Shown: positions 24,087 through 63,802 of the stretch, piece by piece
Layout: the number at the start of each line of letters is the position of its first letter
Numbering within the stretch: the stretch's first letter is position 1
Program-made: the position numbers and the translations under genes
DNA from: a virus
Reading direction: 5' to 3' (one strand)
IMG/VR virus record: IMGVR_UViG_3300024294_000597
Length of the DNA: 64,000 bases
Notes under the pieces: model-generated
Databases searched by the model: none
What the model saw: the letters and a program-made list of their open reading frames with translations, nothing else
Told to the model about the DNA's origin: nothing

Positions 24087-24313
24087 TATTTGCTCACTTT
24101 CTGTTTGTTTATGTGTGAGGCAACCAGTGCATCAAACCTTGTCATGTAATCTACCATACTCAGACTGTTACCGTCAGCGTCCATGAAACAATCAGCATCA
24201 ACATAGTTCCAGTTGACCGAACCATCTGAATTAAGGTTCTCTGGGTTAACAACTGCGGTTGCGAATACTGATTCTAAATTTGTCATACTTGTTTCTCTCA
24301 CTTTATTTCTCAT
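24086..24313 (-). CDS. Small hypothetical phage protein (alternative start 24286)
   Basis: PENLNSDGSVNWNYVDAD; own promoter. Confidence 0.75.
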   Translation of the reverse strand: MRNKVRETSMTNLESVFATAVVNPENLNSDGSVNWNYVDADCFMDADGNSLSMVDYMTRFDALVASHINKQKVSK

Positions 24314-24322
24314 TATGTATAT

Positions 24323-24351
24323 ACTATAACATGATTCGCTATATTGTCAAG
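24323..24351 (-). promoter_or_regulatory. Sigma70-type promoter with GANTC in spacer
   Basis: CTTGAC-N17-TATAGT; TGATTCG at 24332-24338 (+). Confidence 0.8.
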
Positions 24352-24419
24352 TTTTTAATACCGGAGGCCAAACATATATATGATATAATATATATGATTA
24401 AAAAGGTTTAATGTTAAAC

Positions 24420-25078: not shown

Positions 25079-25258
25079 TTAATCGAAAAAGTTACCCAAC
25101 ACCCAAACGAACTTAGTATCACTTACTTGACTCCATACTCCATCAGACCAATTATTCCACAATATAGCTTTATTGGCATCTTCCATAACATCAAGGCCGT
25201 TCTCTGCTTGTGCAGTAAATACGTCACCTAAATGATTTTCAAATGTAAATGTTTTCAT
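25079..25258 (-). CDS. 59-aa hypothetical protein (not in ORF track)
   Basis: MKTFTFENHLGDVFTAQAENGLDVMEDANKAILWNNWSDGVWSQVSDTKFVWVLGNFFD; own promoter. Confidence 0.7.
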   Translation of the reverse strand: MKTFTFENHLGDVFTAQAENGLDVMEDANKAILWNNWSDGVWSQVSDTKFVWVLGNFFD

Positions 25259-25286
25259 ATTCTCACTCTCTTGTTAGTATGTATAT

Positions 25287-25315
25287 ACTATAACACGATT
25301 CGCTGTATTGTCAAG
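25287..25315 (-). promoter_or_regulatory. Sigma70-type promoter with GANTC in spacer
   Basis: CTTGAC-N17-TATAGT; CGATTCG at 25296-25302 (+). Confidence 0.8.
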
Positions 25316-25350
25316 TTTATGGCAAAACTATTTCCCACGTAGGGCACGGT

Positions 25351-26421: not shown

Positions 26422-26655
26422 TTACTCGAATGTCCGCAAGTAGTCAGCTAAGTCTCGTAAGTTGTCTAGCTTGTCTAGTTCATCATCTGAGAATTCGCAT
26501 CCCATTATATCTTCTATTGAGACTAGTAGTTCTATAGAATCTAAGCTATCAATACCTTTATCTTTAAGAGAAATGCCTGCATTAATATCCTCATCTGTAA
26601 CTGTTATGTCTAATCGCTTGAGTATTTCGTCTTTGAGTATTTGTGTGCTATCCAT
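26422..26655 (-). CDS. acpP: Acyl carrier protein
   Basis: Acidic 77 aa; LKDKGIDSLDSIELLVSIED (phosphopantetheine Ser). Confidence 0.88.
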   Translation of the reverse strand: MDSTQILKDEILKRLDITVTDEDINAGISLKDKGIDSLDSIELLVSIEDIMGCEFSDDELDKLDNLRDLADYLRTFE

Positions 26656-27581
26656 TAGTATTCACCTTCGTTTAATTTAATATGTTCATATAGTGGGGCA
26701 ACAGTCCAGTTTTCTGTTATTCTTCCGCGTCTACGTGAATTTGGGTCAGGTATTCCTGAGTCATTGTCTGTGTCCCAGTTTGTTATTTTAACCCAGTGTC
26801 CACGATTAACTAATTTATTACCTTCTTTGAGTGGGAATAATATAGTATTGGGTTCATCATTATATATTCCGTACATTGGATTATCGTGATGACTCCAGAT
26901 ATAGTCTTCTGATATGTTCATTTGTTCTGAGCATAACTTAACTAACTGATTTAATTTAACATTATCTGCGACTTCTGTTTGATATCTACCTAATTGTCCT
27001 ACGTTTTTAATTCTCATAAAAGCATGACGTATTGATTCACGTTCAAAGAGTTCTAATAACTGACCGGGTGCTGTTTCATTTACATCTGGAACAATGATTG
27101 TACCTGTGTCTAGTATCATTTTACGTGCTTTAATATTACGCAGGGCTTTTATTTTCTTTTCGGCACAGCGTAGTTCATCAATCTTTTCATACCAATCATC
27201 ATTATCTACTCCATTGAGTGATAGGTAAACATGTCGTAAACCTGTATCATGTAATTCATCAACGTATCTGCGTGATGATAATCTTAATCCGTTTGTAAGT
27301 AAAATGCAACGATGTCCGAATTCAAATACTGAACGAATAAATTCACCACACTGTGGGTTCATTGTAGGTTCAGCACCAACTATTCGTATCATGCAACGAC
27401 CATTTAAACGTGATAAGAAATCACGAAACTTTTCTAAGTTCATGTCTGGGATTTCACGATTTGGTATGTAACAATTCTTGCAAGACATATTACATTTGTG
27501 TGTGATATCAGCCATGATATCCATAAATGTGTTTTCTTCTGGGAGTTGTTCGTGATAATTAAGTAAGATGTTATCTATCAT
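26655..27581 (-). CDS. Radical SAM protein (type D), translationally coupled to ACP
   Basis: THKCNMSCKNC, GAEPT, LTNG; TAATG overlap with ACP start. Confidence 0.88.
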   Translation of the reverse strand: MIDNILLNYHEQLPEENTFMDIMADITHKCNMSCKNCYIPNREIPDMNLEKFRDFLSRLNGRCMIRIVGAEPTMNPQCGEFIRSVFEFGHRCILLTNGLRLSSRRYVDELHDTGLRHVYLSLNGVDNDDWYEKIDELRCAEKKIKALRNIKARKMILDTGTIIVPDVNETAPGQLLELFERESIRHAFMRIKNVGQLGRYQTEVADNVKLNQLVKLCSEQMNISEDYIWSHHDNPMYGIYNDEPNTILFPLKEGNKLVNRGHWVKITNWDTDNDSGIPDPNSRRRGRITENWTVAPLYEHIKLNEGEY

Positions 27582-54374: not shown

Positions 54375-55721
54375 TTATGCGGCTTCTTTGTGGTAGTAAG
54401 CGTGTTCACCGAACGGTGGGACGATTGAGTCACTGCCATGAATTACAAATAGTGTATCACAGTAATTTGGATTACCCCAACTACCAAATGGGTATCCATC
54501 AGTAAACATTACAAACTTATCAGGATTGATATCGTTTTGTTCCATGAAGTTAAAGTTACATTCAAAATCAGTACCACCTCCACCAACGATTTCATAATCT
54601 TTGATTTCTTCTTGGTTCATCGGAGTAAACTCCTTGAATGAAAATTCATTAACCTCAGTATCGAAAGTCCAAACTCTAAGTCTAAAGTCCTGAAACTGTT
54701 GCATGATGCCTCCAACTTCACCCATGAAGTCAGCTAACATTTTATTATCAATAGAACCTGAAACATCAAGTCCGATACCTAAGTCAACCATAGTATCATT
54801 GTCTTGACCTGGAAGATAAACACCCATAGACCTAGATTTCCTTGATTGACGCATCCATGTAAAATCTGATTTAAGTAAACTTAAAATAGATGTATTAAGT
54901 AACTGTCGCCAATCCATTTTAGGTTCTGTCATAGACTTAACAAGTCTTTTGATATCACCAGGCATATTACCAGCACCAGCAGTTTGAGCCGCTTGAATAA
55001 CAGCCTGTTTCATTTGGTCTTTAAGTTGTTTTGCTTCCTGTTTAGAAATTTTGATAGGCGCTTTACGTCCTGTAGGATCGTTACCACCTGTGCCACCTGT
55101 TTCATCATTGCCATTACCCATGATATGTTGGTCAAGTGTTTTTTTGTCTTCACCTTGACCTGTTTGTTTCAGATGTTGATAAATTTCCTCAGTGTATTTA
55201 CCATGATACTTAGGATCGAATAGTGCAGATTTTGGCATAACACCAATTCTACTTTCAACACAACCTTGATTAACTTTATAGTCAGCGGCTACATTCCAAA
55301 GTTGAGCATCACGATCCTCCTCTTCAAAATCGAATAGACGACCGCCCTCACCACAATGGTCATATACACAGTGAAGAACCTCATGACCTACTACAAAGTC
55401 AATCTCTTCCGGTGTTAAAGTTCTGAAAAAATCACAGTTATAATAAAAATGTTTGCCATCAACTGCGGCTGTTGGGCACCATTCTGCCTCAACTAGTTTT
55501 AATCGTGTAGCAAGTGTACCAAAGAACGGATGTTTGATAAGCATACGTACTCGACCGCCGACAATCATTTCTTTTACTTCTCGGTCAGTGTATTCGAATA
55601 CTACGGGTTCTTCTGAATTTTCATCTACTTCAATGCCTGCATCTTTCAATACATCATCTACTATTTCATCAACTGTTTTCTGATTTGATACTTGCATGTG
55701 AACGTTACCTTTATCTTTCAT
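54375..55721 (-). CDS. HExxH metallopeptidase-like plus vWA domain protein (MoxR partner; alternative start 55697)
   Basis: PFFG, TAAVDG, HEVLH, N.AAD..N; DVSGS MIDAS, GGGGTDF, FTDGY. Confidence 0.88.
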   Translation of the reverse strand: MKDKGNVHMQVSNQKTVDEIVDDVLKDAGIEVDENSEEPVVFEYTDREVKEMIVGGRVRMLIKHPFFGTLATRLKLVEAEWCPTAAVDGKHFYYNCDFFRTLTPEEIDFVVGHEVLHCVYDHCGEGGRLFDFEEEDRDAQLWNVAADYKVNQGCVESRIGVMPKSALFDPKYHGKYTEEIYQHLKQTGQGEDKKTLDQHIMGNGNDETGGTGGNDPTGRKAPIKISKQEAKQLKDQMKQAVIQAAQTAGAGNMPGDIKRLVKSMTEPKMDWRQLLNTSILSLLKSDFTWMRQSRKSRSMGVYLPGQDNDTMVDLGIGLDVSGSIDNKMLADFMGEVGGIMQQFQDFRLRVWTFDTEVNEFSFKEFTPMNQEEIKDYEIVGGGGTDFECNFNFMEQNDINPDKFVMFTDGYPFGSWGNPNYCDTLFVIHGSDSIVPPFGEHAYYHKEAA

Positions 55722-55730
55722 TATGTATAC

Positions 55731-55759
55731 ATATTAACACGATTCGCTGTATTGTCAAG
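55731..55759 (-). promoter_or_regulatory. Sigma70-type promoter with GANTC in spacer
   Basis: CTTGAC-N17-TAATAT; CGATTCG at 55740-55746 (+); -35 and spacer identical to the 25287 promoter. Confidence 0.8.
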
Positions 55760-55940
55760 TTTTCAATACTTCATTAATCGCATTACGTTCTTTAATTAGT
55801 TGTTCCCTGGTTAAAGCAAACTTAGTGTAATAATCCATATCACTTGTAGTAATCTTATGATATTTACCATCCCTATTGCCTTTTACGTATTTAACTGGCA
55901 ATGACACATTTGATAGACTAGACAATGTAAGCACTCCCAA
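55755..55940 (-). CDS. Small hypothetical protein (start uncertain)
   Basis: Fills gap in minus-strand run. Confidence 0.4.
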   Translation of the reverse strand: MGVLTLSSLSNVSLPVKYVKGNRDGKYHKITTSDMDYYTKFALTREQLIKERNAINEVLKT

Positions 55941-56202
55941 TATGAGCAGAAGGTCTATTATGCTCTACCGGCTTAGTAGCATATTCATCTGAACCAGGAA
56001 CATATACACTTTCCACCATATATTCTACATCTTTTCCTAACATAGGGACTCTAACACCTCTGTCCAATATCTTTTGTATGATATCTTTAGCATGGTCACT
56101 ATCATAAGCAAACACTGATAATTGGTCAACTTCTCCAGCTGGAGCATCAACAGGTCTAATGTTTACTATATAGTCATTTTTTAGCGATTTTAGTGTTATC
56201 AT
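55918..56202 (-). CDS. Hypothetical protein
   Basis: GAGAG RBS and own promoter. Confidence 0.65.
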   Translation of the reverse strand: MITLKSLKNDYIVNIRPVDAPAGEVDQLSVFAYDSDHAKDIIQKILDRGVRVPMLGKDVEYMVESVYVPGSDEYATKPVEHNRPSAHIGSAYIV

Positions 56203-56232
56203 TTGGTCTCTCTTTATTGTTAATATACTTAT

Positions 56233-56261
56233 ATTATACTACAGATTTACAACCTGTCAAC
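56233..56261 (-). promoter_or_regulatory. Sigma70-type promoter
   Basis: GTTGAC-N17-TATAAT. Confidence 0.65.
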
Positions 56262-56283: not shown

Positions 56284-57432
56284 TTATTTTATCAAAATAC
56301 TAGCATTTGTGCCACCAAAACCGAAAGAATTGCACAATACAGAGGTTATTTCTGCACGTTCTGACTTACTACGTATGTTTGGACTATAACCTTCTTCAAA
56401 CGCTTCTACGTTCACCGTAGGCGGTATAATAGCGTGTTTTAGAGACATAATAGACATAGCAAGTTCTACAGAACCAGCGGCGCCCATACAGTGTCCTAAC
56501 TGTGATTTGTTAGCAACTATGGGTACATCCTGTAATCCTAATCTATTGATAGCATCTAGTTCCGCATAATCTCCCATAGGTGTTGATGTTCCGTGTACAT
56601 TAATAAGACTAGGTGTTGTGTCTTTTAAAGCATCTTTCATGCATTCTTGTACAACCTTGCCGTCAGGATGAGGAGCAACAGTTTGATAGGCATCATTATT
56701 GATAGCATAACCATCAATCTCGCATATTGTATTGTCCGTCTTATGTTTACTCAATAAGAATAACGCACCGCCTTCACTTAATACTAATCCATCACGTTGA
56801 GTATCATAAGGTCTTGATGCTTTTTCTGGTGTATCATTATATTTGGTTGATAAGGCTCTGAGTTTTCCCATCTGTTTGAATGCATCTGGGTGTATAGTTT
56901 TATCTACAGAACCTGCTATTACATTATCTACCATACCCATTTCAATCATCATGGCCGCCCATATAACACTATAGATGCCTGTGCTACATGCAGTCAAGGT
57001 CATTGCACTAGCACCAGTTAAACCATATTTCATGTTTATATTATGTGCAATCATATCAGGACAATAGTGATAAATGTTATCAGCATTTTCCTTATTTGAC
57101 TGTAAAATTTCTAAGTACATAGAGAAGCCCGGAGATACAATAACACCTGTACGACTTTTATCTAATCCATCTAAGTTTATTTGACTTGCTAATGCTAAAG
57201 CCCATTGATTTGATTCTGGAAGTCTATCACGTTCTGACTCAGTTATGATAGGATATTCTTTTGCATCGAAATGAAACTCTCCAGCTACTTTGCTTCGTGT
57301 CCATCTACTTTCATTTGGGTCAAACTTTGTAATTGGCCCATATGCTACTTTGTTATTGGTAACTCCTTTCCATGTTTCCTGTAAATCACCGAAGGGCGTG
57401 AAACATGAAAGGTCGTTAATATATACGGTCAT
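56284..57432 (-). CDS. fabF: Beta-ketoacyl-ACP synthase II-like ketosynthase
   Basis: Cys-His-His triad: TACSTG, HGTSTPMGD, KSQLGHCMGAAG; NSFGFGGTN. Confidence 0.9.
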   Translation of the reverse strand: MTVYINDLSCFTPFGDLQETWKGVTNNKVAYGPITKFDPNESRWTRSKVAGEFHFDAKEYPIITESERDRLPESNQWALALASQINLDGLDKSRTGVIVSPGFSMYLEILQSNKENADNIYHYCPDMIAHNINMKYGLTGASAMTLTACSTGIYSVIWAAMMIEMGMVDNVIAGSVDKTIHPDAFKQMGKLRALSTKYNDTPEKASRPYDTQRDGLVLSEGGALFLLSKHKTDNTICEIDGYAINNDAYQTVAPHPDGKVVQECMKDALKDTTPSLINVHGTSTPMGDYAELDAINRLGLQDVPIVANKSQLGHCMGAAGSVELAMSIMSLKHAIIPPTVNVEAFEEGYSPNIRSKSERAEITSVLCNSFGFGGTNASILIK

Positions 57433-58204
57433 ATTTTAAATCCGTTGCTATAATGTATTTGATGATTAATCCTGTTGGATCAAATTGATACCACTTCTCT
57501 TGTGTAGTGTAACTTAAACTGTTATTATGATGGTTATTATGCCAACCTTCACCGAATGTGATTAATGCTAAGAACCAGTTATTCTTACTATCATCACCTG
57601 TATCGTGTTCTGGCTTACCAAATATGTGTAGTAAATGTACAATACCAAATGTACCTACCCAAAATTGATACACGCCTGTAATACCTAATACATATCCCGG
57701 TAAGATTGGATCGATAAGAAATAGAATAATCATAGCAACTGTAATAATTTGAAAATAATAACGTTGCATAAATCTTACTTGCGGATCCATATATAAGTCT
57801 TTAAAAATTCTACGTTCAGGAGGAAAGTCTTCATAGAAACCCATTAAGTTTTCCCACCATGATTTTTCTCTTGGACTATGTATGTCCATACCTTCTACAT
57901 CGGAATATTTGTGATGTAATCTATGTCCACCTATCGTTGCTAATGGTTTACCTGGAAAGCCTAATGCGCCCCACCAGAGCAATAGTACCTGACGTTTCCT
58001 TCCAGTCTGATAACTTCTATGTGCCCAATATCTGTGCCAACCTGCAAATCCACCTATCATAGTTGTTATACAACCCCATGCAAACGAGTACCAAAAATAC
58101 TCTGGTGCGGTTATAATACTAAAGAGTAATACCAGGTGCAAAACAATCCATAGTGTTCGCATCTTCCAACCATAAGTATATTTTTCTAGTAGACTTTTAA
58201 TCAT
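57416..58204 (-). CDS. Membrane fatty acid desaturase (delta9-like)
   Basis: His boxes HRYWAH, HRLHH, GEGWHNNHH; TM segments. Confidence 0.92.
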   Translation of the reverse strand: MIKSLLEKYTYGWKMRTLWIVLHLVLLFSIITAPEYFWYSFAWGCITTMIGGFAGWHRYWAHRSYQTGRKRQVLLLWWGALGFPGKPLATIGGHRLHHKYSDVEGMDIHSPREKSWWENLMGFYEDFPPERRIFKDLYMDPQVRFMQRYYFQIITVAMIILFLIDPILPGYVLGITGVYQFWVGTFGIVHLLHIFGKPEHDTGDDSKNNWFLALITFGEGWHNNHHNNSLSYTTQEKWYQFDPTGLIIKYIIATDLKYDRIY

Positions 58205-58811
58205 GTTTTTCTATCCTCTCTCCTGTTCTAAAGTTTCTCCAATTAAACTTCCAAACATCTTGCTTAATCCCATACAATGGGAAATCTTTATGTAATAGAG
58301 TTAGCTTATCTTCGTGTGGCCATGCCACATAAGCAAATCTCCATATCTTGTGCATCGTGCCACTTCTATCTTCACTGTGGTCTTGTGATGCTGTTGTAAC
58401 CACACAATCTGTGGCTCCTTGTTCATGTGCCCAATCTACCATAAAAGGAACTAATCTTGCAAATCCAAACTCATGATACATTCTTCTAGTATTCTGTCTA
58501 TCGTCTGCCATATTACGCCACTCAGGTAGTGTTGCCAATCTATAGTTTATCATATAACATGTATCATGTACATGTGGCAAGTAATGTGCACCTGCCATTG
58601 ATACTATCTTATCCTCGTGATAAACAAACCACCAGTTCTCTTGTGAACCCCATTTGCCAAACTTCAATGCTTTGAGACTAGCATTATTTAGTATACCTGC
58701 ATCACCACACTTATCGCAGAATTCTTCTAAGTCTGCTTTTAATGTGCTATCGTATTCTACTACTTTAAATTCGTAACCCTCTGCACCAGTGAATGTTTCT
58801 AATACTTTCAT
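58197..58811 (-). CDS. GNAT-like (acyltransferase-fold) protein
   Basis: WFVYHEDKIVSMAG...RLATLPEWR beta/alpha pattern; weak. Confidence 0.5.
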   Translation of the reverse strand: MKVLETFTGAEGYEFKVVEYDSTLKADLEEFCDKCGDAGILNNASLKALKFGKWGSQENWWFVYHEDKIVSMAGAHYLPHVHDTCYMINYRLATLPEWRNMADDRQNTRRMYHEFGFARLVPFMVDWAHEQGATDCVVTTASQDHSEDRSGTMHKIWRFAYVAWPHEDKLTLLHKDFPLYGIKQDVWKFNWRNFRTGERIEKHD

Positions 58812-59533
58812 TTCTTAGCCAATAACATTGGAATATAATATTTACCAGCCCAATCAGTTAGGTCATCACGTGACATATCAAGTCTTGCTGAATACTTGTG
58901 ATGTATGTCGTGACATCCCTCTCCCATCATCCAGATGTTTGAAAAGCCACCTAATCTAGCAGGCCCACCCTCTTTGTGTGCTGAGAAGTTTAACCAAGTA
59001 AGTGCTACCCACATGTGAGTAAAGTTAAATGCTTGCCATACAACTAACCACGGGCTGATTATTAAATGTATTAATGTGAATAATGCATATAGTTTCCAAT
59101 AGTTTCTATCAACATAAACTACATCACGTTTCTTTAATAGAAAACGTAAACTAATATAATCCTCTGGCGTCTTATAATGTCCTAACCACATTTTCCAGAA
59201 GCCTAGGTCAGCTGGATTATGCGTGTCCTTATCTGTATCTGAATTCTTATGATGATTTAAATGAGAGTACACATATTGTATTGGACTTCCATTTGCACTC
59301 ATAATAATACCATACAACATTGCATAGCGTCCTACGATATGAGGAACAAATTGGTCATGACATAACCATCGATGATATGCAATCTGTGACAATGCATTTG
59401 TTACACAACCATATAAGGTAAATGTTAATGCAAGTTGCCAAGATCCACCTGTAATAAAGTATGCCGGTATACCAATTAAGGTAATTGCTAACATGAAAAA
59501 TACTTTTACTGTTACTTTATTTTGATATGTCAT
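58808..59533 (-). CDS. Membrane fatty acid desaturase, diverged
   Basis: His boxes HRWLCH, HLNHH, GEGCHDIHH. Confidence 0.88.
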   Translation of the reverse strand: MTYQNKVTVKVFFMLAITLIGIPAYFITGGSWQLALTFTLYGCVTNALSQIAYHRWLCHDQFVPHIVGRYAMLYGIIMSANGSPIQYVYSHLNHHKNSDTDKDTHNPADLGFWKMWLGHYKTPEDYISLRFLLKKRDVVYVDRNYWKLYALFTLIHLIISPWLVVWQAFNFTHMWVALTWLNFSAHKEGGPARLGGFSNIWMMGEGCHDIHHKYSARLDMSRDDLTDWAGKYYIPMLLAKK

Positions 59534-61209
59534 TACTTCTTTAGTGATTCCTCTAATACTTCTTCGTGGCTTTTGCCATCAAACAAAAACTTTCTATGCC
59601 AATCGTATGCATGTGGAGCCAAATCGCCTTGTGCCTTACTTAATTTCTTGCAATACTCGAACATTATATCTGCTTTGTCTAACAGTTCTTTCTTAGTATT
59701 TAGTTCAACTGAATCATCAAAACACCCCATAGCAGTGGCTACATTCATCCACATATAATCAGGATATAAACTATTACCTATATGATTGTCAGGGTTTCTA
59801 TACTCTTCCCAACATGCTTTGGCATGATTGTGCTTCTTGCCATACTCTTTTTGTTTCTTCCAGAAATTAGTATCTTCTCTATTTGATAATGTATAATGAT
59901 ATGCAATAAAGTTTGCAGTATGGTCTTCTAATTTATTCATACTCTTATTATATGCATGTACACTTCCAGGTGATATAGTTTTATCCTCGTCCCATGCACG
60001 TTTTACTAATCTATCTAATATCTGTATGCCCCATTGTGTTATGTATAATGCATTACCTTCCATTGGTTCAATAAATGAATGACTCATTCCGATGCTTAGT
60101 ACGTTTTTATTCCAAGGAGTAACCATACGTCCTGCCTTCCATGAAATATGTTTTGGTGGTTTGATAAACTCATAACCTTCCCAATATTTCATAAACTTTG
60201 CTTTTGCATCTTCGACAGATATTTCAGTCTTATCAAAAATATAACCTGAACCCATTCTGTTATATAATGAAATAACAAAGTTCCAGCCTTCGTCTTGTGC
60301 ATACGTTTGTGTATACGGTTTGAATTCGTTATATATGTCCTTGTACTTTAGTGGACCAACAATAGCATCTTGTGTATGAATAAAATCGTAATCATGCCAT
60401 TCATTATTCATCCCATCCACTAATACTTTGTGGAAGCCTGAACAATCGATAAACAAATCACCTTCATGTTCTATGCCATCTTCCATTATTAGTTTTGTAA
60501 TGTATCCATCCTCATCTTTAATGATATCTTTGACATCACCAATGGAATGATTAACCCCTTTTGGTATGGCAACTTTATCTCTAATGATTTCTGGAAATCT
60601 ATTTGCATCTAAATGATATGTATATGCTGACCAGTCACCGACTAAGCAGTTATCATCCATATCAAATGGTGCCTTGTTACCTTTCATTAAATAATGTTGT
60701 TCATGCATATCCTCTGAAAGTTCATTAATGTTTTTTCTACCATCACGTACTAATTGCAACCAATAGTCGTTCCACTTATCATTTACTCCGGCTTCGCCTT
60801 TAGAATTAGTAAAGTAATCATCTGTAGTAAGTTGTCCATAAAAACTTCTGGTTAGATGTTTCTCAGGTAGTGCGAATGAAAATGAATAGTATTGTACATC
60901 TTCCTTTGGTGCATTCCAATGGTCTGTTACATGGTGTCGTTTACCTGGTGTACTCCAACCAACAAATTTGTTACCTAATTTATAAACTGAATTAGTATAA
61001 CTCATCCAGTCTCTTTCCTCAAGACCCATTGTTGATAATAAATCATTTACTTGAGGCACTACACTTTCACCTACACCTATTGTAGGAATGTTATCACTCT
61101 CAATTAAAGTAATGTCTAACCACGGGTGCTTATTTTTCATGTAACCTGCAGTGAACCAACCGTTTATTCCACCACCAACGATTACAAGTTTTTTTAGTTT
61201 GGCTTTCAT
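59533..61209 (-). CDS. Flavin-dependent tryptophan halogenase-family protein
   Basis: IVGGG.GW, TIGVGES, YKLGNKF..W, FIDCSGF, FIEPME. Confidence 0.88.
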   Translation of the reverse strand: MKAKLKKLVIVGGGINGWFTAGYMKNKHPWLDITLIESDNIPTIGVGESVVPQVNDLLSTMGLEERDWMSYTNSVYKLGNKFVGWSTPGKRHHVTDHWNAPKEDVQYYSFSFALPEKHLTRSFYGQLTTDDYFTNSKGEAGVNDKWNDYWLQLVRDGRKNINELSEDMHEQHYLMKGNKAPFDMDDNCLVGDWSAYTYHLDANRFPEIIRDKVAIPKGVNHSIGDVKDIIKDEDGYITKLIMEDGIEHEGDLFIDCSGFHKVLVDGMNNEWHDYDFIHTQDAIVGPLKYKDIYNEFKPYTQTYAQDEGWNFVISLYNRMGSGYIFDKTEISVEDAKAKFMKYWEGYEFIKPPKHISWKAGRMVTPWNKNVLSIGMSHSFIEPMEGNALYITQWGIQILDRLVKRAWDEDKTISPGSVHAYNKSMNKLEDHTANFIAYHYTLSNREDTNFWKKQKEYGKKHNHAKACWEEYRNPDNHIGNSLYPDYMWMNVATAMGCFDDSVELNTKKELLDKADIMFEYCKKLSKAQGDLAPHAYDWHRKFLFDGKSHEEVLEESLKK

Positions 61210-61211
61210 TT

Positions 61212-62576
61212 TTACTCCACAAATTGTTCTTTGACTACGTGTCTCTGAACTTTGCCCATAGGATTTCTAGGTAGTGGATCTTTGGTAATAACAATTTCTT
61301 TAGGTAATTCATACTGAAATAATTTATCTTTAACAAAGTCCATCAACTCAAGACTATTTATCTCACTGTCCGCACTGACTACTGCAACAATTTCTTTTTC
61401 CCCTAGTCCTCTATCACGATATGTAACACAAACTTCGTTAACCTCTTCATGAGGTAATAACATATTTTCAATTTTAATAGGCGATACATTGAAACTGTTT
61501 ACTTTTATTAAATCTGTTTTACGTGATTTATAAAATAAAAGATTATGCTGAGTTTCTAATACATCACCAGTACACCAATAGCCATCATCATCTATAGGTG
61601 TTTCTTGATTCAGATATCCTTCTGTAACACAACTACCTTTAATCCAAGCAACACCATATCTATCTAATTTGAAATCATAGTTATCAGTAATATGAATTTG
61701 TAAAGGATGTGGATCATCTGGAGTTGCCAAGTGTGTAAACATTGGTACATGTGTTTCAGTACAGCCATACAAGTTTCTTAATGCAGGTGCACCTTTATCA
61801 AATAGTTCTTGTAGCATTTCTTCCGGACAAACTGTACTACCAAAACCTAACTCACGCCAATGAGACAAGTCTGCGTCTTTCCAACCACGTGTCTTAGACA
61901 GGGCCAACATCATTGCAGGAACCATAATACCTATCGTAGGTTTCATTTCGTTACAAATCTTAATAAACTTTCTGGGATTAAACATTTCACAAATTACTGT
62001 ACACCCTTTCATTAAACCAGGAAGTGTATAAAGATACAGACCACCAATAGTCCAAGGAGGAAGTTGTGAGAGTATTACATCATCAGATGTTAAAGTTTGA
62101 ATTAGAATGTTTTGTATTGAGCCTTGGACACATGCCATTCTAGTATGTGGGACTGCCTTAGGCTCTCCTGTAGTACCGCTAGTAAATATAACAGTATATA
62201 AATCATCTGCACCTTTGGCAAATACTAATCCTTTGTTATGAGGTTTTAGATTAGATGCATCATCCTCATTTAGAATAATATGATTTGGTTTACTGGCATT
62301 CTCAATACGAGATACCATACCTTCAGTTAGATTTGGCATAGTGGGCATGAATGTGACTCCTAACATATCACAAGCTAATACCATTCTTACATAATGATAT
62401 TCTTTTTCACTTGAAAATAGTAGACGCTCACCAGGCCTGATGGCAGTAGACAACGTAGCACCTAGTTTTTCAACACTGGTGATTAGTTCGTTGTATGTAT
62501 AACTCTTATCGTGGCAAATCAGGGCAGTCTTGCTACCGTGATTCTTTGCCTGTGCTTTTATTGTTTCCCAAATCAT
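61212..62576 (-). CDS. Adenylate-forming acyl-CoA/acyl-AMP ligase
   Basis: FTSGTTGEPK, YGCTE, TGD, R..D.IK, LPRNPMGK. Confidence 0.92.
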   Translation of the reverse strand: MIWETIKAQAKNHGSKTALICHDKSYTYNELITSVEKLGATLSTAIRPGERLLFSSEKEYHYVRMVLACDMLGVTFMPTMPNLTEGMVSRIENASKPNHIILNEDDASNLKPHNKGLVFAKGADDLYTVIFTSGTTGEPKAVPHTRMACVQGSIQNILIQTLTSDDVILSQLPPWTIGGLYLYTLPGLMKGCTVICEMFNPRKFIKICNEMKPTIGIMVPAMMLALSKTRGWKDADLSHWRELGFGSTVCPEEMLQELFDKGAPALRNLYGCTETHVPMFTHLATPDDPHPLQIHITDNYDFKLDRYGVAWIKGSCVTEGYLNQETPIDDDGYWCTGDVLETQHNLLFYKSRKTDLIKVNSFNVSPIKIENMLLPHEEVNEVCVTYRDRGLGEKEIVAVVSADSEINSLELMDFVKDKLFQYELPKEIVITKDPLPRNPMGKVQRHVVKEQFVE

Positions 62577-62581
62577 ATCTA

Positions 62582-62610
62582 ATTATAACAAAAAAAGGGA
62601 GAGAAGTCAA
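62582..62610 (-). promoter_or_regulatory. Consensus sigma70 promoter for ligase operon, probably leaderless
   Basis: TTGACT-N17-TATAAT, 5 nt before ATG 62576. Confidence 0.75.
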
Positions 62611-62624
62611 CACCTCTCTCCCTT
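62590..62624 (-). terminator. Intrinsic terminator of MoxR gene, overlapping the promoter
   Basis: aagggagaga/tctctccctt stem with T-run on minus strand. Confidence 0.8.
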
Positions 62625-62647: not shown

Positions 62648-63802
62648 TTATGCGTTATGAGCCTCGATAATTAGCTTACCGTATTTCTTAAAGAACTCCT
62701 CGATACAAGGAACCTTCCTAGGCTCAAGTGGAAGTTTGTAAACTTTTAGTGCAGTACGACCACCTAGAACAATCATTTCAGTTTCAAAGTTATCCATCAT
62801 GAACCTGAAAAAGTTATCAGCCATTTTGTACAACTCATCCATTTTGCCTTTGTTTTTCTCTGCATGTTCTTTCAACTCATAACATAGTGAAGCAGTTAGT
62901 GAGAACATAGCTGAGATTTCCTTAGCTTCCCTAGACACCGTTTTTACCTTACCATTTAAGATATCAGTTGGATTAGGAAGTTTACCAGAAATTGCTCGGT
63001 GAGCCATAAACTTAGTAGCAACACCATCACCAACAGTACCAGCAATTAAGTCATGCAGTTTACTATCATCGATATTTTCATCTTTCATTGGCATCAACTG
63101 TGATGCAAAAGTCCATGAACGAGGAGTTGCGAAAGCCCGTGATGCAGTTCGTGGGTCAAAGTTAAACAAGTCCATCTTATTAGATGTTAAGTAACCAACA
63201 ACATCAGAATGGATTTTGTTTTCAAGAGCCCAAGTCTGCCAATCTTCAAAGTCAACACCCATTTCTAAGTGAACGAAACGGTTAGCAAGTGGGCTTGGCA
63301 TACGATAAGCAACACCTCTATCACTCTCACGGTTACCAGCGGCAACAATAAGAACATTATCAGGTAGAGTGTAATTACCTAGACGCCTGTTAAGAATAAG
63401 TTGATAAGCCGCCGCTTGTACTGATTGCGGTGCTTGGTTCATTTCATCTAAAAACAATACAATGTTTTCAAACTGGTCAGCAAGTTCCTGACTAGGCAAA
63501 TCAGACGGTGTCGCCCAATCCATAGTATTTGTTTTCTCATTATAGTATGGGATACCTCGTAAATCAGTAGGTTCCATAAGAGCAAGTCGTAAGTCAATCA
63601 TATAACCTGAACGCTCTTGTGTGATTGAATCAACAATCTCAGATTTACCTACTCCCGGAGGACCCCAAATAAAGACGGGTCGTTGACGATTAAAAGCATA
63701 ATTAATTTCAGCTTTAATATCACTCGGACGTACAATTCGTACATCCATATCATTCATTGAAACTTGTGCAGACATATTTTCATTTCCTTTGTTTTGTATC
63801 AT
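62648..63802 (-). CDS. MoxR-type AAA+ ATPase (alternative start 63775)
   Basis: GPPGVGKS Walker A, LFLDE Walker B, AAGN, LANRF, TPRSW. Confidence 0.92.
   Translation of the reverse strand: MIQNKGNENMSAQVSMNDMDVRIVRPSDIKAEINYAFNRQRPVFIWGPPGVGKSEIVDSITQERSGYMIDLRLALMEPTDLRGIPYYNEKTNTMDWATPSDLPSQELADQFENIVLFLDEMNQAPQSVQAAAYQLILNRRLGNYTLPDNVLIVAAGNRESDRGVAYRMPSPLANRFVHLEMGVDFEDWQTWALENKIHSDVVGYLTSNKMDLFNFDPRTASRAFATPRSWTFASQLMPMKDENIDDSKLHDLIAGTVGDGVATKFMAHRAISGKLPNPTDILNGKVKTVSREAKEISAMFSLTASLCYELKEHAEKNKGKMDELYKMADNFFRFMMDNFETEMIVLGGRTALKVYKLPLEPRKVPCIEEFFKKYGKLIIEAHNA

Follow-up and report, generated by a model that had tools for sequence, protein, structure and literature searches.

A conserved ligase, halogenase, GNAT and ketosynthase cassette in T4-like large marine phages, with a possible role in acyl-amide biosynthesis

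The 64,000-nucleotide (nt) stretch of viral DNA analyzed here, taken from the IMG/VR record IMGVR_UViG_3300024294_000597 and referred to throughout as the window, carries a cassette of six minus-strand open reading frames (ORFs) that abut or overlap one another across positions 56284-62576. Read in the order from ligase to ketosynthase, the junctions comprise a 2-nt gap followed by overlaps of 1, 4, 8 and 17 nt. A first-pass annotation of this DNA had described six co-oriented, abutting or overlapping genes placed under one promoter, and the coordinates, the junctions and the promoter (TTGACT-17-TATAAT) were all confirmed. The member genes, with product lengths in amino acids (aa), and the two genes that bound them are as follows:

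61212-62576, minus strand: ANL-superfamily adenylating ligase, 454 aa (Pfam AMP-binding, 6e-47, and AMP-binding_C)
59533-61209, minus strand: Trp-halogenase-family flavin-dependent halogenase, 558 aa (PF04820 Trp_halogenase, 4e-88, 296.6 bits)
58808-59533, minus strand: membrane desaturase 1, of a divergent SCD/DesC type, 241 aa (three His boxes)
58197-58811, minus strand: phage-specific GNAT-fold protein, presumed acyltransferase, 204 aa (predicted structure)
57416-58204, minus strand: membrane desaturase 2, of the SCD/DesC (delta-9) type, 262 aa (PF00487 FA_desaturase, 3e-11)
56284-57432, minus strand: FabF-like elongating ketosynthase (KS), 382 aa (Pfam ketoacyl-synt N and C domains, 1e-26)
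62648-63802, minus strand: upstream boundary, cobS-like/MoxR-type AAA ATPase (phrog_1297, 9e-101)
54375-55721, minus strand: downstream boundary, cobT-like DUF2201 metallopeptidase/VWA (PF13203 and PF09967; phrog_1314, 5e-106)

All six enzyme-family assignments hold, including the GNAT-like call of the first-pass annotation, as judged by Pfam matches, His boxes, tblastn, catalytic motifs and the fold recovered by AlphaFold, Foldseek and VIA. The same six genes occur in the same order on five distinct IMG/VR contigs, and the cassette is spread over many ocean metagenome contigs, Tara Oceans samples included. Fourteen distinct variants from marine metagenomes were compared by tblastn and gene calls, and the order ligase-halogenase-GNAT-KS is unbroken in all 14, down to protein identities of 41-60%. 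These four genes constitute a core of about 4.8 kb. In every locus that carries the cassette, it is situated between the cobS-like AAA and cobT-like VWA genes, which are directly adjacent in two more distant relatives from which it is absent (L014 and L015). The co-conservation in viral metagenomes on which the earlier reading depended was thus found, with the genes kept as one unit, and chance is excluded because this synteny is conserved in many independent contigs.

The desaturases behave differently from the core, in that they number zero, one or two and shift position among the variants:

No desaturase: L034 (a 166-kb NCBI metagenome contig), L046-49, L054 and L063
Single desaturase between halogenase and GNAT: L036, L050-53 and L062
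Single desaturase after the KS: L045, L038 and L064
Two desaturases: the window and its closest relatives

Because their number and position vary, the desaturases are accessory tailoring modules rather than the heart of the pathway. The halogenase is also subject to exchange. That of L001 is 96% identical to the halogenase of L012 and only 64% to that of L002, whereas the remaining L001 genes, among them those for the ligase, GNAT and KS, share 93-94% identity with their L002 counterparts and 58-79% with those of L012. The halogenase gene has therefore been swapped between otherwise near-identical cassettes, a pattern that resembles the modular diversification of biosynthetic gene clusters. 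Two halogenase types, about 65% identical, can be distinguished by the context of the GxGxxG motif and by the WxFxI motif.

The DNA of the window is viral, as the earlier annotation had supposed. It is assigned to a phage because a relative that is collinear over the stretch compared, G001, encodes the T4 gp23 major capsid protein (277 bits) and a Terminase_6N large terminase and has direct terminal repeats. G001, one of the five IMG/VR contigs that share the six-gene order, is a genome of 342,607 bp with a CheckV completeness of 100%, and it is collinear with the 20-40 kb interval of the window at 70-87% nucleotide identity. The boundary AAA and VWA genes themselves belong to phage families (phrog_1297 and phrog_1314). 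Published T4-like pelagimyophages are resembled in their Asp/Asn hydroxylases and many radical SAM genes (PMC7029224), and the thymidylate synthase and dihydrofolate reductase genes found nearby in relatives are another pelagimyophage-like trait (PMC7029224). The hosts of these T4-like phages are possibly SAR11-like alphaproteobacteria. A blastn search with the cassette against 50,697 deposited phage genomes returned no match.

Two overlapping features lie immediately ahead of the ligase gene:

62582-62610, minus strand: strong sigma-70-type cassette promoter, TTGACT-17-TATAAT, matching 11 of 12 consensus positions
62595-62624, minus strand: terminator-like hairpin with a 13-pair stem and a T-run, closing the cobS-like gene

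The -10 box ends 5 nt ahead of the ligase ATG, so the ligase mRNA probably has no leader, or almost none. At eight loci where protein identity has dropped to about 60%, the TTGAC, a TATAAT-like box and an ATG placed 5-9 nt downstream are kept, and compensatory stem changes preserve the hairpin among these eight relatives. The conserved promoter and hairpin ahead of the ligase therefore define the cassette as its own transcription unit. The -35 box is located in the loop and 3' arm of the terminator hairpin of the cobS-like gene, an arrangement that suggests possible coupling of termination to initiation.

The ligase maintains the ANL motifs A3 (TSGTTGEPK), A5 (YGCTE), A7 (TGD), A8 (SRKTDLIK) and A10 (PMGK), and its catalytic-motif columns are invariant across orthologues. 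The phage clade comprises about 74 clusters at 51% identity or more, and beyond this clade identity stands at 29% with MenE and at 25-28% with fatty-acid, benzoate and 2-aminobenzoate coenzyme A (CoA) ligases. In NCBIfam it best matches a generic long-chain-fatty-acid-CoA ligase subfamily, with a score of 208 bits where the cut-off is 476. By these comparisons the protein appears to be a short, generic ANL enzyme, in which the fatty acyl-AMP ligase (FAAL) type is not evident. The KS, for its part, is homologous to FabF over its full length. Alignment to FabF 4jga places an intact catalytic triad of Cys (TACSTG), His (HGTST) and His (GHCMG), in agreement with the first-pass annotation, and the Lys of KSQLGH and the FGFGGTN motif are shared as well, while the N-terminal half is shortened. 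The catalytic residues are invariant among orthologues. Phage-type KS proteins, on contigs of up to 338 kb, make up about 90 clusters with at least 54% identity, and identity falls to about 34% at the nearest cellular relatives, which are alphaproteobacterial FabF proteins; the score of 256.8 bits likewise lies below the cut-off of 493.75 for the FabF equivalog TIGR03150. In contrast to the FabF of type II fatty acid synthase (FAS), the KS resides in a phage genome (G001) without FabD, FabG, FabZ and FabI partners.

Among structures in the PDB, the halogenase is closest to PyrH, Thal, PrnA and RebH (1e-54 to 1e-57), followed by VirX1 (7e-49) and BrvH (1e-48). The GxGxxG motif (GGGxxG), the catalytic Lys (YKLGNKF) and the Glu of EPME are invariant in 12 orthologues. 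WxWxIP and Fx.Px.Sx.G are signature motifs of halogenases (PMC12645471); throughout the phage clade the former is replaced by WxFxI[S/P/T] and the latter by a degenerate [F/M]xEPMExNx, with the family fold and the catalytic pair retained. Likeness to the Trp halogenases fades past about residue 456, and therefore the substrate module of the enzyme is its own and points to no named substrate. The two desaturases are distant paralogues, as detected by tblastn. Desaturase 1 carries the His boxes HRWLCH, HLNHH and HDIHH, which conform to the HX4H, HX2HH and HX2HH boxes of SCD/DesC-type desaturases (PMC5776448, PMC8341276), and those of desaturase 2 are HRYWAH, HRLHH and GEGWHNNHH. PF00487 rises above its cut-off for the 262-aa desaturase 2 alone, and desaturase 1 has no match in Pfam, NCBIfam or PHROGs. 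In a phylogenetic tree, the in-cluster desaturases fall into four well-supported clades apart from the tandem desaturase pairs that stand alone in other phages, with a support of 100 for the in-cluster clade of desaturase 1 and a supported in-cluster clade of its own for desaturase 2.

The 204-aa protein has no match in Pfam, NCBIfam or PHROGs, and its assignment comes from structure prediction. An AlphaFold (AF2) model built from 20 homologues reached a pLDDT of 92, and this model has a GNAT fold according to both Foldseek (probability 1.0, E 1e-5) and VIA (Z 11.7, covering about 145-150 residues; the match to FeeM has Z 10.5). Weak Acetyltransf_1 matches were obtained for three of the 20 family members. 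The nearest folds in the ESM atlas are viral GNAT-like clusters (TM 0.75-0.85), and the atlas clusters nearest by language-model features are viral as well. The family itself was not detected in 185,579 prokaryote genomes by a pattern scan whose sensitivity is limited to the two motifs used, and 15 viral loci were recovered for it. An acyl-homoserine-lactone synthase (LuxI) identity was considered for this protein and dropped, as no LuxI-type match appeared in any search. A predicted complex of the ligase with the GNAT scored 0.00, a value taken as evidence neither for nor against an interaction.

Remote relatives of the GNAT recur beside the same enzyme families. A profile search of 1.84 billion representatives recovered 136 such relatives, mostly of about 180-200 aa. 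In one of these, P0237 on contig L067, an AMP-binding ligase is fused to the GNAT domain and a KS follows immediately; this KS is 24% identical to that of the window and has a Cys-His-Leu triad, the second catalytic His being Leu. In another, the 414-aa P0196 on L076, the GNAT domain is C-terminal to a half without an assigned family, and the gene is overlapped by one for a 351-aa mini Trp_halogenase that keeps GxGxxG, the Lys, WMWNIF and FLEPLE and is without the C-terminal substrate module. The mini-halogenase is followed by a class IV aminotransferase (L076:7001-10369), and the contig is phage-like, with Mtd_N. Associations of this Rosetta-stone type are an argument for a joint function of the ligase, GNAT, KS and halogenase. 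Two further relatives have other company, that at L065 ending an array of five radical SAM genes and that at L074 lying between a hydroxylase, a short-chain dehydrogenase/reductase (SDR) and a radical SAM gene. Contig L067, of 23 kb, also bears a T4_deiodinase-family gene about 3.6 kb downstream, the features of interest on this contig lying at L067:903-3878 and L067:7530-8588.

Between the AAA and VWA genes, neither the window nor any variant examined has a PP-binding ORF. The nearest acyl carrier protein (ACP) is encoded about 30 kb away, next to a radical SAM gene:

26422-26655, minus strand: phage ACP, 77 aa (PP-binding, 41.6 bits, GIDSLDS motif)
26655-27581, minus strand: radical SAM gene upstream of the ACP, 308 aa, its stop codon overlapping the ACP start by one base

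The first-pass annotation had enlisted this ACP for the operon. It is a genuine PP-binding protein, but, 30 kb off and paired with a radical SAM gene, it is only a candidate carrier for this operon. The pair may represent a carrier-protein-dependent radical SAM system, and in G001 DNA it is matched most closely away from the collinear position, by a second such pair at 245 kb. Three PP-binding genes are present in G001, located by a radical SAM gene, a cupin-domain gene and Fe-S/nitroreductase genes, respectively, along with an ACPS-type phosphopantetheinyl transferase (PPTase). By gene content, then, the phage is equipped for carrier chemistry. The ACP, malonyl transferase and reductive enzymes that would accompany the KS in a self-sufficient type II FAS or polyketide synthase are not found beside it.

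The cassette can be described as either a thiotemplate-style acyl-amide biosynthetic cassette or a phage auxiliary gene cluster. The reading preferred here is that it specifies a dedicated, co-inherited pathway of T4-like large marine phages whose product is likely a halogenated, and sometimes unsaturated, acyl-amide, a proposal to which we give even chances. Gene content, intact catalytic motifs, fold, phage origin, the invariant four-gene core and the conserved promoter are observed, and from these we infer all substrates, the carrier, the sequence of reactions and the end product. In infected cells the cassette promoter would drive its transcription. The ligase would adenylate a carboxylic acid, either aryl or fatty, and pass it, as a thioester, to CoA or an ACP of the host or phage, after which the FabF-like KS would extend it using host malonyl-ACP. 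Where present, the SCD/DesC-type desaturases would add double bonds to the chain. The GNAT would then move the acyl group onto an amine acceptor (an amino acid, amine or peptide), and the Trp-halogenase-type enzyme would halogenate the starter, the acceptor or the product at an electron-rich position. GNATs that transfer ACP-bound or fatty acyl chains to amines are documented (PMC8784127, PMC11685415), and the release of an N-acyl amide by the GNAT is the most plausible part of the earlier reading. Such a pathway would diversify through swaps of halogenase alleles and through gain and loss of desaturase modules. A bolder claim, offered tentatively, is that it is the first virus-encoded natural-product pathway to contain a KS, and that abundant T4-like phages use it during infection to make a halogenated acyl-amide signal, antibiotic or membrane-active compound, relying on a family of GNAT-fold acyltransferases that went undetected in cellular genomes.

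Several observations weigh against this pathway. The cassette contains no ACP, thioesterase, ketoreductase, dehydratase, enoylreductase or exporter, and no FabD, FabA/Z or SDR homologues were found in G001, so that malonyl loading and any reduction must be supplied by the host. The nearest cellular relatives of the ligase, at 25-29% identity, are too distant for a substrate to be assigned. Since two of its signature motifs are degenerate, the halogenating activity of the halogenase is uncertain. The structural matches of the GNAT all fall within about 1 Z unit, FeeM/LuxI-type proteins being no nearer than ordinary acetyltransferases, and so do not discriminate the donor or the acceptor. The GNAT also has no clear acyl-CoA P-loop motif: in the Q/RxxGxG/A region after strand 4 the family consensus is LATLxExRGMA and the window protein reads EWRNMA, which is non-canonical. 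Some ACP-using GNATs deviate from this motif too. Lastly, the segment between the KS and the VWA gene is a variable insertion site, and therefore some of the adjacency could be incidental.

Of the competing explanations, one retains the acyl transfer and changes its target. The cassette would be a lipidation and halogenation module, in which the GNAT, in the manner of selidamides and goadvionins, acylates a Lys, Orn or N-terminus of a ribosomal peptide or of a protein from phage or host and peptidyl Trp is the target of the halogenase, the whole serving the large radical SAM and hydroxylase peptide-tailoring machinery of the phage. Many radical SAM/SPASM and Asp/Arg-hydroxylase genes do lie in the window, the remote GNAT relatives at L065 and L074 sit by genes of these kinds, and GNAT-mediated fatty acylation of peptides made on ribosomes and modified after translation, with transfer from ACP to peptide, has been documented (PMC8784127). 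However, no gene for a precursor peptide was recognized within the cassette or next to it, other genes separate the cassette, which has its own promoter, from the radical SAM arrays, and the radical SAM region of the window holds no paralogue of the GNAT. This explanation is considered unlikely.

An equally improbable alternative is that these are auxiliary metabolic genes that remodel the membrane lipids of the host, with the halogenase and GNAT as unrelated passengers. The ligase would then be an acyl-ACP/CoA synthetase active in fatty-acid salvage, the KS a substitute for FabF that sets chain length, and the desaturases determinants of fluidity. The invariance of the presumed passengers, halogenase and GNAT, is at odds with this assignment of roles, as is the dispensability of the desaturases. 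Both desaturases nevertheless carry His boxes of the delta-9 SCD/DesC type, like the functional cyanophage vFADs (PMC5776448), the nearest cellular relatives of the KS are alphaproteobacterial FabF proteins, and a survey of T4-like SAR11 phages (pelagimyophages) lists fabF and stearoyl-CoA desaturase, purely as lipid-biosynthesis genes (PMC7029224). Yet the KS shares just 34% identity with FabF and scores under the equivalog cut-off, and the ligase-GNAT fusion and the GNAT-halogenase pairing are seen elsewhere. The desaturases of the cassette also differ from vFAD and the pelagimyophage genes in being embedded in, and accessory to, a ligase-halogenase-GNAT-KS core.

That the genes are functionally unrelated morons, gathered at a cobS-cobT insertion hot spot, is very unlikely. 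The adjacency of the AAA and VWA genes in cassette-free relatives would fit such a hot spot, as would the KS-VWA segment, which differs among phages and in the window holds an extra ORF pair with its own promoter. The four core genes, however, never separate; they keep their order, overlap translationally and share a promoter across deep divergence, and the same enzyme families associate in unrelated contexts too.

The first-pass annotation had also invoked the logic of alkyne and polyyne pathways (JamABC, caryoynencin), and this part was not supported. Such a pathway would have the ligase attach a fatty acid to an ACP and the desaturases produce a terminal alkyne or polyyne; the alkyne would be halogenated by the halogenase and extended by the KS. 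Like jamABC(D) and the bacterial polyyne clusters (cay, pgn, cepacin and collimonin), the cassette is an operon that unites a ligase with membrane desaturases and a flavin halogenase and has a KS downstream; the flavin halogenase JamD acts on terminal alkynes (PMC12645471), and ACPs and a PPTase are encoded elsewhere in the phage. The features that define alkyne and polyyne cassettes are missing. JamABC has a co-localized ACP (JamC) and a membrane desaturase/acetylenase that is always present, and the polyyne core has a desaturase triad with a thioesterase and a rubredoxin (PMC8406139), whereas the phage cassette has no ACP and two desaturases at most, which are optional and wanting in several variants, and yielded no thioesterase or rubredoxin family match in Pfam or NCBIfam. 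Moreover, the halogenase resembles Trp/indole halogenases and is kept in the desaturase-free variants L034, L046 and L063, and the 454-aa ligase is generic and not evidently a FAAL (PMC8406139). The alkyne and polyyne interpretation is accordingly held to be highly improbable. A CurA-type decarboxylase or loading role for the GNAT is conceivable, but no ACP is fused or adjacent to the GNAT. A CmlS/CmlK-like alpha-halogenation of a beta-keto thioester was rejected, the sole CmlS match being to the generic FAD-binding N-terminus.

The acyl-amide pathway preferred here has its closest parallels in GNAT-dependent acyl-amide and lipopeptide biosynthesis, represented by the FeeM-type N-acyl amino acid synthases, goadvionin GdvG, selidamide KspN/PhaN and SbzI. 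These systems likewise combine a GNAT fold with acyl-activating and chain-building enzymes, and acyl groups from an ACP or the fatty-acid pool are placed onto an amine (PMC8784127, PMC11685415). The phage cassette differs in having neither a precursor peptide nor an ACP, in its invariant Trp-halogenase-type partner and in being virus-encoded, and the phage GNAT shows no detectable sequence membership in the FeeM, GdvG, KspN/PhaN or SbzI clades. Each enzyme of the cassette belongs to a known superfamily, and single halogenases (VirX1) and single desaturases (vFAD) are already known from phages. VirX1 is a flavin-dependent halogenase of a cyanophage (Gkotsi et al. 2019, as cited in PMC12645471), and the DesC-like delta-9 cyanophage vFAD represents the same phage-borne SCD/DesC type, with HX4H, HX2HH and HX2HH boxes (PMC5776448). 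Both VirX1 and the cassette halogenase are phage-encoded members of the Trp-halogenase family (7e-49), the cassette clade being set apart by WxFxI[S/P/T] and a degenerate third motif. To our knowledge, VirX1 has not been reported alongside a ligase, a GNAT and a KS. In literature searches, no characterized pathway matched the ligase-halogenase-GNAT-KS unit, its GNAT family or its conserved promoter, which agrees with the first-pass annotation, to which no characterized phage pathway of this composition was known.

Most phage auxiliary genes encode single enzymes that promote host primary metabolism. A set of enzymes that resembles a small natural-product pathway, wedged between two standard phage genes, is unusual for a virus. 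If the proposed function is correct, viruses of abundant marine bacteria would synthesize a specialized, probably halogenated, metabolite of their own, with a bearing on the sources of marine organohalogens, on chemical warfare or signaling during infection and on enzyme discovery. Enzymes of interest in the latter respect include the viral halogenase clade with its altered signature, the minimal 454-aa ligase and the GNAT family, which went undetected in cells.

The junction between the KS and VWA genes has a transcription unit of its own in the window:

56260-56233, minus strand: promoter of the next unit, just past the KS, a perfect 12/12 TTGACA-16-TATAAT

Behind this 12/12 promoter, at 55755-56260, are a 94-aa ORF and an overlapping 61-aa ORF; the small ORFs (55755-56202) have no match in Pfam, NCBIfam or PHROGs. 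The pair is missing from the closest relatives, in which the KS abuts the VWA gene. In other phages this junction holds differing genes of unknown function, for which no informative family was found.

Additional features of the wider surroundings can be noted. The region 29075-50319 of the window encodes at least five radical SAM/SPASM proteins and an Asp/Arg hydroxylase, a heavy investment by the phage in tailoring chemistry, together with a Nol-type carbamoyltransferase (phrog_1601) and a 1522-aa ORF without a family match. In five relatives, a gene for an SbmA/BacA-type inner-membrane transporter is situated about 3-4 kb upstream of the AAA gene (L034:967-2004, L036:619-1653, L039, L062 and L064). 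The corresponding position in the window would fall past its 3' end, and such a protein could transport a peptide or lipid product. Finally, short elements of about 45-60 nt in the window (at about 24295-24360 and 25250-25320), probably a promoter family, recur at about 20 scattered sites in G001, with 75-94% identity.

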